Positions 18,589-21,500 of a DNA stretch of 64,000 bases are shown piece after piece. This DNA is from an uncultured Gammaproteobacteria bacterium (GTDB lineage Bacteria; Pseudomonadota; Gammaproteobacteria; JABCZS01). The notes under the pieces are model-generated. The model was given only the letters and a program-made list of their open reading frames with translations. It was not told the DNA's origin and ran no database searches. Position 1 is the stretch's first letter. Every line of letters begins with the position of its first letter. A program made the position numbers and the translations under genes. The DNA is taken from the NCBI GenBank assembly GCA_964383495.1, contig CAYLHG010000006.1, forward strand, positions 2,214-66,213. Reading direction: 5' to 3'.

Positions 18589-21500
18589 TTACTTAAATAT
18601 CTTGTGACATATTTCTTGAGATTTATCACCACCAAATTCTGCAATATCACTAATAAATGGGGCAGCGGCAACATTCATAGTTTCAGTTGCTAGCAAGCCA
18701 ACTACTGTGGCGCTTGCCATCCTGGTTGCTAAAAAGTGTAATCCCTTATCAATAACAATATCTGCTACAACTCCAGTAGTTGCACAATACACGCGACTCG
18801 TTGTAGAAGAATCCATATAATCCTCATCCATCATTCTTTCTCCAAATTTATAAGTTGTATCAACTTTACGGGTGACGGATTTAAAATATTTTCCTGTGCC
18901 TTCCAACCCTTTTACTTTGTCTAATGCAGTTAATCTCTGATCAAGAGCCTCCATCATCATGTCTTTCGCCGCGGATTTCCCGTCAACAGTACGATTTTGT
19001 GTGGGCAATAAATATGTCATTTGAGAAATATGCACAAATTGTGCTGTATACTCTGCGAATAGATTCATCCACTGCCTGGATACTTGCTGACGTTTTTCCA
19101 ACGAAAGATCATTCTTACTCATTAGCGGCTTAATCATTTGTTCTAAAAACTGCTCGTATTTTTTATTGATCATTTGTTTTTGCAATGTTTTCAATTCTGC
19201 AGGTGAAGCACCTTGGCTTTTTGCTTGCGCTAATGCAGCTTGCTCAAGCTCAAATGAAGGAGCTTCAATCTCCTCTTCTTTCCTTCGCGTCGCTCTAAGG
19301 GGCACATTTTCAGCAGGAGCTTTAGGCAAAGAAGGTGGTTGAGGCATTTTAGGTTGTTGTCTAGATTTTGAAAATAAAAGCATTGCACTCGTTGTTGTCT
19401 TTACAACACCATACAATGCAATTTGCTTGGCAGCCCCTGCAAAAATATTGGATCCTCTGAAAGCATTGCCTTCAACCATACTGCGTACTTCTTCCTCCAA
19501 TACTTGGTTGATCATTATTTCAGTGATCTCGGCTAAATTTTTCTTCTCCTTCAAACTGTTTGGCATTTGCGATCGCGTTGCGCTCATAACAGTACTAGCT
19601 ACCAAGCCTTGCCAATTGAATTGTGATTGTTGGCCGGTTACCAATAAATAACTTTGCTCTGCTAGATTTAACATGGCAGCCTGGTGCATCGCAGTTAATG
19701 TTTTTGAGGCGTCTGAAGCCCCTTTTAAACCGTATCCCGCATTGCTAATTCCTGCAGTCATCGCGCCTATCACGGTGGATGCTGTTAATTGCTCCCAGTC
19801 AATGCTATTAGCAATGCCTACAATATTTGCAACAGCTTGTGCGCTCAAATTACCGGCTGCACTTGCAGCTGCACCAGCTGCAATCGCGCCTAATAATTTG
19901 CTACCCATTAATTTAGAAAGTTGCGGTGCAACAATTAAAGTGACAACAGTTCCTATCGCTAATGGAAGAAATACTTTCCAGCTAGGCGGTTGTTTAGGTA
20001 TTTTTACATAATATGGCGCTATAGATGGCACTGTATTACCTAATTGCGCTGCGTAGGAATGATTTTGCGATTTCTCTCCATAAGGAATAGAAATTTTTGC
20101 ACCTATAGGCAATTTTTCATCTACAGTATATTGTGGGTTCTGTTGTTGTAGCCAGCCAGCTGCTTCTGCATGACCAAAACAATACATTTTTGCTACATCA
20201 CGCAATGTTGTATTTTCTTTTGTGATCTCTACAATTAAGGGCTGTGAGGCGAATGGGTTATCCGAAAAGGGTAAATTCACAGATTCCACTTCCCAGCGCC
20301 CCATCGCTTCATCTTTTTTTCGCTCGTATTGAGCTATGATACGCCCCTGATGCGTACTAGTGCGCGCTACTTCTTTAGCATTAGGTGGATCATTTACGTT
20401 CCCTTCTTCACGATACACAACCTCTTTATTAGGCATCGCATAATAATATGCGGTCCGAGCAGGATCATTTCCATCCACCTTCTTTCGTGCTGTCCCATAT
20501 TCCGTGTGATATATCTGAGTGTAATTAGTTGAGCTTTTTTCTTCATCATGAAAGAACGTTGTTAAATTGATTTTTGATTCTGTAAGAACGGAAAATTGTA
20601 CATGATCATAAGCTAAACTATTAGTTATGCGTTTTACAGGATCTCCATTATCAGCAGTATGCGGATAAATTTCTTGTTGGCTACGCTTTAAAGTCCCTGC
20701 CCCGTCACGACTGCCATTCAAATTTTGTAATAAATCAAAAATTTTATTTATTTTGACGGAATTTCCATTACCCTCAGCATACTGCTGCGTCAATAATGAT
20801 CCAGCAGGCGTACACGTTACCGTGGTGCTTTCTAATTTAATGCGGAGATCTGTTTTAAGATAAGTGATTTTATTTTTTAATACACCTTTTTTGCTGTGTG
20901 TTAATGAAGTCTCTCTATCATCAGAATGCGTAATAAGAGACACATATCCTTGATTCCCATAATGAAAATTATCAGTAATCCACGCATTCCTATCTTCATC
21001 AAAATAACGCTGTGAAGCCATATTACCCTGATAGTATTCTGCGACGGAAGAACGATACCGCGAGGACTCATATAACATTCCTTGAGGATCTCGCAAATGT
21101 CTCGCTTTTTTTACTTTATTCATTGGAGAGAACGTATACCATAACATCACATCATCTAGCAATTCCCCAGGATTGCTAGGATCAGTACTTTTAAAATCAA
21201 TTGCACGAATATTGCCAGCCTTATCTTCATAATACGATAATTTATAATCAATATCTGCAACAAATGAAATACGGTTAAGTGTACTGTAATCAATCACCAT
21301 ATCTTTCAACGTTACACCATTCAACCAAAAACGCTCATTAATGTTCATACTATTTTCATTGTAACGATATAACATAATAGCTTTGTCCAATGATATAGAA
21401 GAATTATCCTCCATATAAGGTTGCGTGTAGGTCATGTAAAGCTGATTCGAGCTATAATAACGATGAGACATACGAAAAATAGGTAATCTCTGTCCTTCAC

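Follow-up and report, generated by a model that had tools for sequence, protein, structure and literature searches.

How polymorphic toxins cross the inner membrane of their target cells is unsettled for most families. The transmembrane (TM) helices of prePAAR Rhs and Tse6 effectors have been proposed to carry the attached toxins across the membrane, and the pre-toxin/cytoplasm-entry region of CdiA is an Ala/Gly-rich segment within very large surface proteins. In Tde1, a type VI secretion system (T6SS) DNase, a GxxxG glycine zipper is needed for membrane permeabilization and prey entry, not for secretion or enzyme activity (PMC10240207), and in two tested T6SSs the binding of VgrG to an effector is mediated by LysM (PMC10673891). 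A comprehensive survey of polymorphic toxins named LysM only as an adhesion domain, and for RHS toxins it described no pre-toxin element of TM or Gly-rich character (PMC3482391). Here, we analyzed the C-terminal region of a giant YD-repeat protein encoded in a 64,000-nucleotide stretch of DNA from an uncultured Gammaproteobacteria bacterium (GenBank assembly GCA_964383495.1, contig CAYLHG010000006.1, positions 2,214 to 66,213 of the forward strand), hereafter called the window.

Our best explanation, to which we assign a probability of roughly 0.55, is that the last ~650 residues of this protein would serve, in a giant polymorphic toxin of YD-repeat type, as the delivery end, composed of a constant pre-toxin cassette for membrane insertion or translocation, an exchange linker, and a payload tip. 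What appears to be new is a group of Rhs-type polymorphic toxins whose junction differs and which carry a membrane cassette of their own; the window protein would be a divergent member of this group with an uncharacterized tip. No description of the cassette was found in the literature searched, which leaves out most subscription papers, so that this is absence of evidence only.

Results

A conserved cassette upstream of differing C-terminal tips

The giant gene and the parts of its product that concern us here are located in the window as follows.

18589..33540, minus strand: giant YD/RHS-repeat open reading frame (ORF), 4,983 codons from a GTG (ORF list and translation)
20269..20540, minus strand: last beta-rich stretch past the final YD repeats and before the cassette, residues ~4334-4424, conserved with the ortholog P0002 and with P0004/P0005
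20080..20244, minus strand: predicted degenerate LysM domain, residues ~4433-4487 (alignment of relatives, profile against PDB, AlphaFold2 [AF2], Foldseek)
19978..20079, minus strand: spacer, residues 4488-4521, Pro-rich near its end, with a conserved G..T.P motif and basic residues right before the TM helix (alignments A4/A5)
19918..19974, minus strand: single TM-grade helix, residues 4523-4541, VFLPLAIGTVVTLIVAPQL (Kyte-Doolittle; AF2 helix with pLDDT ~80)
19441..19917, minus strand: Gly/Ala/Ser-rich amphipathic helices, residues 4542-4700 (alignments A4/A5, jackhmmer, AF2 helices with pLDDT 70-86)
19258..19440, minus strand: further helix 4701-4723, then a Pro/Lys-rich linker 4724-4761 (from the sequence; the equivalent linker is the swap point in P0004/P0005)
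19273-19290, minus strand: TRR[KR]xE motif (TRRKEE, residues 4751-4756) at the end of the linker, present in all four tip-bearing proteins
19006..19257, minus strand: tip subdomain a, residues 4762-4845, short K/E/Q-rich helices with the pattern SFE.E...AK.QG...EL..L.....KY..F., shared with P0003 and P0006
18592..19005, minus strand: tip subdomain b, residues 4846-4983, ending in GGDxSQxxC(H/R)xxFK, present in all four proteins including P0002

Exhaustive HMMER searching of 1.84 billion cluster representatives recovered 95 proteins in three groups: the ortholog P0002, the tip-only matches P0003 and P0006, and ~90 proteins matching residues ~4425-4665 only. P0002 (4,768 amino acids [aa]), from a metagenome-assembled genome labeled 'Gammaproteobacteria bacterium', is a full-length ortholog with 43% identity across the last 780 residues. 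Conservation is seen in its cassette and final ~90 residues, and the linker and K/E/Q-rich part show little conservation or are absent. When the comparison was extended with jackhmmer, most of the ~90 relatives aligned collinearly over most or all of a ~270-residue cassette (residues ~4425-4700), and the window protein is, as judged from these alignments, a divergent yet collinear copy of it. In complete relatives, the cassette always ends 330-660 residues from the C terminus. Most of the relatives are giant YD-repeat proteins of 2,000-7,400 aa, encoded by Lysobacter, Solimonas, Ralstonia, and uncultured Proteobacteria, and all 11 giants scanned carry RHS repeats.

Named carriers include proteins of Lysobacter capsici (4,632 aa) and Solimonas sp. 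(6,595 aa), the latter belonging to a pair of tandem giant paralogs of 6,595 and 6,617 aa in Solimonas sp. K1W22B-7 (CP031704, L005 10001-39788). The Solimonas pair sits near its own rpoN-hpf-ptsN-hprK-rapZ cluster, the same neighborhood as in the window. On the Ralstonia solanacearum megaplasmid pMAFF211479 (L088 1411-18715), the cassette lies in a 'hypothetical protein' of 4,440 aa, and seven unannotated ORFs of small or medium size come after it in a row, which could be an immunity or orphan array; a 466-aa ORF downstream of this giant is not an orphan copy of the cassette. A tblastn search against plasmids, covering the LysM plus 'TFKPYDP' part only since the remaining cassette was masked as low complexity, also detected the LysM end in Burkholderia ubonensis, Eleftheria terrae, Variovorax, and Undibacterium.

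The family consensus reads GDTL.SIA....GD..LWYLIADANGL....L..GQ.L.IP. in the LysM part, N...TFKPYDP...IG.T.P.LP.PP....GCG. in the spacer that follows, and G.II.V.VAVVVT. in the hydrophobic helix. After the helix come AAGA..GAAGS.ASQ.VG.A.G.QD.FSWK.VA..A..GGVT.G. and then AA..N..TQG..VA.GLQ..F.W.GVAASAV.AGV., with invariant G, P, Q, and F/W columns in the family alignments A4 and A5. Apart from LysM, no Pfam or NCBIfam model covered any of the cassette.

Past the cassette, nearly every sequence is unrelated to the others, 72 of 78 tails being singletons by end-anchored BLAST. P0004 and P0005 illustrate the boundary, as they are distinguished by 5 of 446 positions up to a point of complete divergence, which lies in a Lys-rich linker ~93 residues past the cassette. 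Tips recognized by Pfam comprised Deam_C, Ntox46, Ntox22, WHH, EndoU, EC869-like, Endonuclease_NS_2, Scabin-like, Enterotoxin_a, and RES, most of these being of nuclease, deaminase, ADP-ribosyltransferase, or RES type. Directly downstream of the giants in five relatives' loci lie small ORFs of 91-133 aa, two of them assigned to DUF6966 or DUF6911. Because a constant cassette is followed by nearly all-different tails that include classic toxins, with small ORFs directly after them, the cassette is very probably the constant pre-toxin element of a polymorphic toxin family. The first-pass annotation of this DNA had suggested that the C terminus may be a membrane-inserting or pore-forming payload, or an anchor, possibly a new class of toxin domain; as regards the Gly/Ala region, its place in a constant cassette of ~90 proteins with differing tips, known enzymatic toxins among them, contradicts the payload and new-class views.

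The end of the window protein accordingly displays a layout that, read from the alignments, would run from a ~270-residue cassette (LysM, Pro-rich spacer, TM helix, and four or five Gly/Ala/Ser-rich amphipathic helices with two Q..F.W motifs) through a linker to a ~220-residue tip.

Absence of the Rhs autoprotease junction

A regular-expression search of the translated ORF found neither the DPxGL-(18)-DPxGL pair nor PxxxxDPxGL anywhere in the window giant, which bears out what the first-pass annotation had noted by eye and also its broader statement that the C terminus departs from the canonical Rhs core followed by a soluble toxin. Only three isolated DPxG[LIM] sites occur, at residues 1451, 3873, and 4151, and the beta-rich stretch at residues ~4334-4424 carries no Rhs core-end motif. 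The same motifs were absent near the cassette in all 26 related giants searched (0/26), and the whole cassette family is without the Rhs aspartyl autoprotease junction. PT-HINT was present in only 2 of 65 relatives.

The LysM part of the cassette

The window stretch alone gave no Pfam or NCBIfam match to LysM, even at E <= 10. At the aligned columns, the Pfam LysM model passed in 31 of the 65 short relatives and in 4 of the 11 giants, and the window sequence aligns column for column with these true LysM domains, keeping the conserved Gly and Pro. A family profile with the window sequence as its first row matched solved LysM domains with E values from 3e-11 (Ecp6, Kbp) to ~1e-6. Single-sequence AF2 of residues 4400-4983 was uninformative (pLDDT 38); supplied with a 35-sequence family alignment, AF2 reached a pLDDT of 70.9 for the modeled cassette overall and predicted a beta-alpha-alpha-beta unit at residues 4434-4486 with a pLDDT of 89-97, comprising strands at cassette positions 11-14 and 58-61 and two helices. 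Foldseek with this model returned LysM domains as the best matches (probability 0.97-0.99, over 55-67 residues at 2-3.5 Å). The profile and structure matches included LysM subunits of contractile-injection baseplates (8kea, 9gtp, 7aeb, and 7b5h), and the Pfam family Phage_tail_X was matched in two relatives. The first part of the cassette is thus a predicted LysM fold, degenerate in the window protein, and the earlier LysM-like call, made from the letters of the sequence, agrees with the relatives' domains, the profile, and both structural comparisons.

One membrane-grade helix followed by Gly/Ala-rich helices

Residues 4523-4541 (FLPLAIGTVVTLIVAPQL) have a Kyte-Doolittle 19-residue mean of 2.05 and form the sole segment at or above 1.4 in 4,983 residues, and every family member has one hydropathy peak (1.5-3.0) at the same alignment position. 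Across 35 family members, the 15 residues before the helix hold a mean of 1.77 K/R, compared with 0.40 after it. The region that follows is small-residue-rich, with Gly, Ala, and Ser making up 41% of residues 4542-4665 versus 18% protein-wide, and it contains 26 small-xxx-small (G/A/S) pairs against 20.1 +/- 2.6 in shuffled sequences, a modest excess that ~2% of shuffles reach. AF2 placed helices at cassette positions 97-121 (the TM helix), 125-150, 158-176, 187-210, 219-233, and 245-266; the helical Gly/Ala-rich part had no PDB or Pfam relative and no Foldseek match. Two 'G.Q(D).F.W' motif positions fall at residues 4575-4582, degenerate in the window protein, and 4636-4643. In the family alignments, column Q144 is invariant in both A4 and A5, F217 is fully conserved in A4 and almost fully in A5, and W219 is nearly invariant; of the family-conserved columns, the window protein keeps Q4568, F4641, and W4643.

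The peptides quoted in the first-pass annotation all lie in the giant ORF where it had placed them. Its description of several glycine-zipper-like hydrophobic helices was right about the Gly/Ala/Ser richness and the modest small-xxx-small excess, but only residues 4523-4541 are TM-grade, the other segments peaking at 1.36 and 0.88. On the opposite strand, a 112-codon ORF (19673-20011, plus strand) runs antisense to the Gly/Ala-rich coding region and most likely owes its existence to the GC-rich Ala/Gly codons of the coding strand.

The linker and tip of the window protein

The variable tip, with a length of ~220 aa, is placed past the Pro/Lys-rich linker, from about residue 4762. The TRR[KR]xE motif near the end of the linker, which reads TRRKEE, TRRRNE twice, and TRRRPE in the four tip-bearing proteins, may mark a site of processing between linker and tip. 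Among the 1.84 billion representatives, the tip was found in only three other proteins (P0002, P0003, and P0006). P0003 and P0006 match residues ~4760-4983 only, at 28% identity, and subdomain a is absent from the ortholog P0002; the invariant residues of subdomain b are R, two Cys, GGD, Q, and FK. P0003 and P0006 were considered as stand-alone small proteins or orphan tip cassettes and this was rejected, because in both cases the frame continues open as far as the beginning of a ~1.3-kb contig, which makes them C-terminal fragments of larger proteins.

The K/E/Q-rich region, previously described as a coiled coil, is predicted to be helical, and the coiled coil is not supported. In a home-made heptad test (not COILS or DeepCoil), the a/d contrast was 0.53 versus 0.55 +/- 0.09 in shuffled sequences, with no periodicity above shuffles, and Pro or Gly occurs at least every 40 residues, the longest stretch free of both being 40 residues. 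The final hydrophobic patch reported in the same annotation reaches a Kyte-Doolittle value of 1.34, below TM grade.

The giant gene, its body, and its setting

The database copy of the window protein (P0001) begins with MPSFISGG, eight codons past the GTG, and aligns with the family N terminus MxAVISGxGLGLFNSS. Because MPSFISGG lines up with this conserved N terminus, the true start is likely the ATG at 33516, giving 4,975 aa, rather than the GTG at 33540. The extreme N terminus shared by the giants, MxAVISGxGLGLFNSS...YVN.ATGNL...RTYNS, corresponds to window positions 33400-33540 (minus strand), where the version is MPSFISGGDKGIFDSS. No signal peptide was present at the N termini of the window giant or of the giants compared with it (P0048, P0095, P0013, P0074, P0052, and P0065), and the conserved N terminus could potentially act as an export signal for some unidentified route.

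YD/RHS repeats in the giant protein were recognized by Pfam RHS_repeat (E = 1.6e-13) and TIGR01643 (E = 4.5e-10), in chunks spanning residues ~198-1804 and 3513-3856, with TIGR01643 at 3821-3856; Pfam also gave a weak DUF6531 match at N-terminal residues 47-84. The last 733 residues had no Pfam or NCBIfam match. The middle ~1,500 residues (~2230-3750; window ~22300-26850) showed no YD motif or Pfam match except a weak DUF7881_N at 2826-2910. The bodies of relatives contain Ig-like, He_PIG, PA14, PKD, or lectin domains.

The G+C content of the giant gene is 35.7% (34.9% without the last 2 kb) versus 43.2% in the rest of the window, and the ortholog locus (L001) shows a milder drop, 44.0% versus 47.1%. 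The low value is compatible with a foreign origin or with a composition rich in Asn, Lys, Ile, and Tyr. A Legionellales source for the DNA was considered on account of the low G+C and the J-domain neighbor and was not adopted, as the organism's AlaRS reaches at most 61% identity in species-representative genomes, with the top matches all in gammaproteobacterial metagenome-assembled genomes. The gene is flanked by a divergent rpoN-hpf-ptsN-hprK-rapZ cluster and by ordinary housekeeping genes, and Pfam scans of the window proteins found no secretion-system genes within the 64 kb. Six further window ORFs of 227-664 aa have no Pfam match (39581-40264, 41163-43157, 48120-51419, 59919-61160).

Genes downstream of the giant gene

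Downstream of the giant gene, on the same strand, lie the following features.

18497..18526, minus strand: sigma-70 consensus promoter-like site, TTGACA-18-TATAAT (pattern scan, 12/12; consensus match only)
16210..18483, minus strand: 757-aa gene next to the giant gene, candidate partner or immunity protein, co-conserved in the only known ortholog locus
13989..16217, minus strand: 742-aa gene with hydrophobic N-terminal segments and an internal J domain (Pfam DnaJ, E = 6e-7, residues 430-475)

The 757-aa protein is 36% identical to a 761-aa protein whose gene lies directly downstream of P0002 (L001 24326-26611), and this was its only homolog in a search of 5.8 billion proteins. As the sole homolog lies directly downstream of the ortholog giant, the 757-aa gene appears to be co-inherited with the giant gene. 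The protein had no Pfam or PDB match, and an impression of ankyrin-like motifs in it was dropped, as Pfam gave no support. The promoter-like site lies in the 105-nucleotide gap between the stop of the giant gene and the 757-aa gene, and because of its 12/12 match to the sigma-70 consensus, the 757-aa gene may have a strong promoter of its own; no terminator-like site was found after the giant gene on the minus strand. The 757-aa and 742-aa genes overlap by 8 nucleotides, which suggests translational coupling. In the 742-aa protein, the J domain has an intact HPD motif (LLLHPDKN) and J-domain matches in PDB. A canonical dnaK-dnaJ pair is located elsewhere in the window, at 51483-54692.

Discussion

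Most of the recognized tips belong to families acting on intracellular substrates, so a device for translocation would be needed, and because the only constant element beside the tips is a TM-grade helix with small-residue amphipathic helices, we read the cassette as that device. By analogy with Tde1 and with the prePAAR Rhs and Tse6 effectors, its function may tentatively be membrane insertion or translocation, to which we give slightly less than even odds. The giant YD part would first bring the protein to the target, after which the hydrophobic helix and the small-residue helices could insert into the target's membrane, with the tip carried or threaded through it. The LysM unit might hold the protein on periplasmic peptidoglycan during crossing, or dock it to a spike-like carrier.

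Several observations weigh against a translocating delivery end. No genes of a T6SS, type V or type I secretion system (T5SS, T1SS), or injection system adjoin the window gene or the genes of six relatives, and the giants have no signal peptide. Within the window protein, no autoproteolytic or HINT domain that could free the tip was found, and the two listed Gly/Ala-rich segments stay below TM grade (peaks of 1.36 and 0.88), which leaves residues 4523-4541 as the sole self-spanning helix. The tip matched no Pfam, NCBIfam, or PDB sequence, whether alone or as a four-sequence profile, and shows no recognizable catalytic family; here, the first-pass annotation had correctly anticipated that the protein ends in a domain outside known toxin families. 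The partner genes are also atypical, in that the 757- and 761-aa proteins at two of the four tip loci are far larger than usual immunity proteins, and the other two tip loci (the P0003 and P0006 fragments) have a convergent gene downstream that is not of immunity type. The window tip may therefore not be an ordinary antibacterial enzyme, the pattern of partners being unusual for an antibacterial toxin.

LysM beside a single TM helix is a common envelope-anchoring layout, and the same parts could instead fix the protein to the producer cell, with LysM on its peptidoglycan, the TM helix in its membrane, and the tip as a cytoplasmic or periplasmic tail rather than a payload. That the cassette is constant while the rest varies, and that no secretion genes lie near the window gene, would be expected of such an anchor. 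However, the helix has its basic residues mostly on the LysM side (1.77 versus 0.40 K/R), which by the positive-inside rule would put LysM in the cytoplasm, away from peptidoglycan, and the 4,400 residues that precede the helix have no signal peptide that could export them. The cassette, moreover, always stands right before polymorphic toxin tips paired with immunity-like ORFs, which is the layout of a delivered toxin, and we regard the anchor as improbable. A further alternative is that LysM serves to dock the protein, either to a VgrG-like spike or to a contractile-injection baseplate, and leaves that machine to handle the hydrophobic helices. The LysM-mediated interaction of VgrG with effectors in two systems (PMC10673891) would provide a precedent. 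The baseplate subunits 8kea, 9gtp, 7aeb, and 7b5h stand among the best structural and profile matches, and two relatives match Phage_tail_X, but the baseplate matches are generic matches to the LysM fold, and the window LysM is internal and degenerate. Neither the window gene nor any of the six relatives has vgrG, PAAR, hcp, or injection-system genes as neighbors, and proteins of 4,000-7,400 residues are, to our knowledge, far larger than known T6SS cargo, all of which makes docking quite improbable.

The least probable of these alternatives, in our judgment, is that the glycine-zipper helices are themselves the toxic payload, acting as a pore-former or ionophore. Their composition, with 41% Gly+Ala+Ser and enrichment in small-xxx-small pairs, would suit such a role, as glycine-zipper toxins exist (EsxX, CdzC/D) and the Tde1 N terminus produces DNase-independent growth inhibition. 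Pore-forming C-terminal domains are likewise known in Rhs proteins, for example Tse5 (PMC10684867). Nevertheless, the helices fall below TM-grade hydrophobicity, and the region is not terminal; because it is conserved upstream of unrelated enzymatic toxins, it cannot be the polymorphic payload. A secondary permeabilizing activity of the Gly/Ala helices would be compatible with a translocating delivery end as well. A broader proposal, which we consider rather unlikely, is that the cassette giants constitute a separate delivery class of YD toxins, marked by the LysM-TM-Gly/Ala cassette, the conserved N terminus, and the loss of the autoprotease, and equipped with a translocation device of their own, independent of T6SS. 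In the window, a new non-enzymatic or eukaryote-directed tip (TRR[KR]xE...GGDxSQxxCHxxFK) would then work with the lineage-specific 757-aa partner, not with a small immunity protein.

If the C-terminal region is a translocating delivery end, as we prefer, the cassette is a concrete candidate for the step of crossing the target inner membrane, being conserved, easily recognized, and situated directly before many different cytoplasm-acting toxins. Because it is present in the culturable Ralstonia solanacearum, Lysobacter capsici, and Solimonas, this candidate is open to experiment. Many giant proteins of 2,000-7,400 aa annotated as 'Rhs-family' or 'hypothetical' would be toxins without the textbook Rhs cleavage junction, and since that junction is absent, motif-based finders of Rhs toxins will miss their tips. 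For the window protein, the payload boundary moves to about residue 4762, and attention shifts to the four-member tip family and the co-conserved 757-aa neighbor.

Comparison with known systems

The canonical Rhs/YD toxins, for example T6SS Rhs effectors and the Tc toxin TcB-TcC, share with the window protein the YD/RHS repeats and a DUF6531-type N terminus, and at the family level also a constant body, exchangeable C-terminal tips, and small immunity-like ORFs after them. The cassette giants differ in having no DPxGL-(18)-DPxGL or PxxxxDPxGL junction (the window protein and 26 relatives), and in having the repeats separated from the tip by the LysM-TM-Gly/Ala cassette and a long linker. The window giant is three to five times longer than typical Rhs proteins, and no Pfam domains that would link it to PAAR or VgrG were found in the protein, in the 64-kb window, or beside the six relatives.

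In Tde1 and in the prePAAR Rhs and Tse6 effectors, as here, a small-residue-rich or hydrophobic helical segment occupies the same polypeptide as a toxin acting in the cytoplasm. Their segments, however, are short, lie at the N terminus, and are linked to T6SS adaptors or chaperones, whereas the window cassette, which contains LysM, extends over ~270 residues immediately before the tip, and no sequence similarity between it and those segments was detected. The LysM proteins fused to T6SS toxins or encoded at vgrG loci (PMC10673891) also place a LysM fold beside a toxin module, and the LysM subunits of contractile-injection system (CIS) baseplates resemble the cassette in structural and profile matches. 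Unlike either group, the window copy fails the Pfam LysM model, stands in no vgrG or CIS context, and is followed by a conserved TM/Gly-Ala region that has not been reported in theirs.

The arrangement is also reminiscent of the pre-toxin regions of CdiA (DUF637, PT-VENN), which likewise form a constant region immediately before exchangeable C-terminal toxins in very large proteins. No Pfam match to DUF637, PT-VENN, or haemagglutinin repeats occurred in the window protein or among the families of the 65 short and 11 giant relatives. In contrast to CdiA, the body of the window giant is built of YD repeats rather than FHA repeats, and it is not accompanied by a cdiB-type partner.

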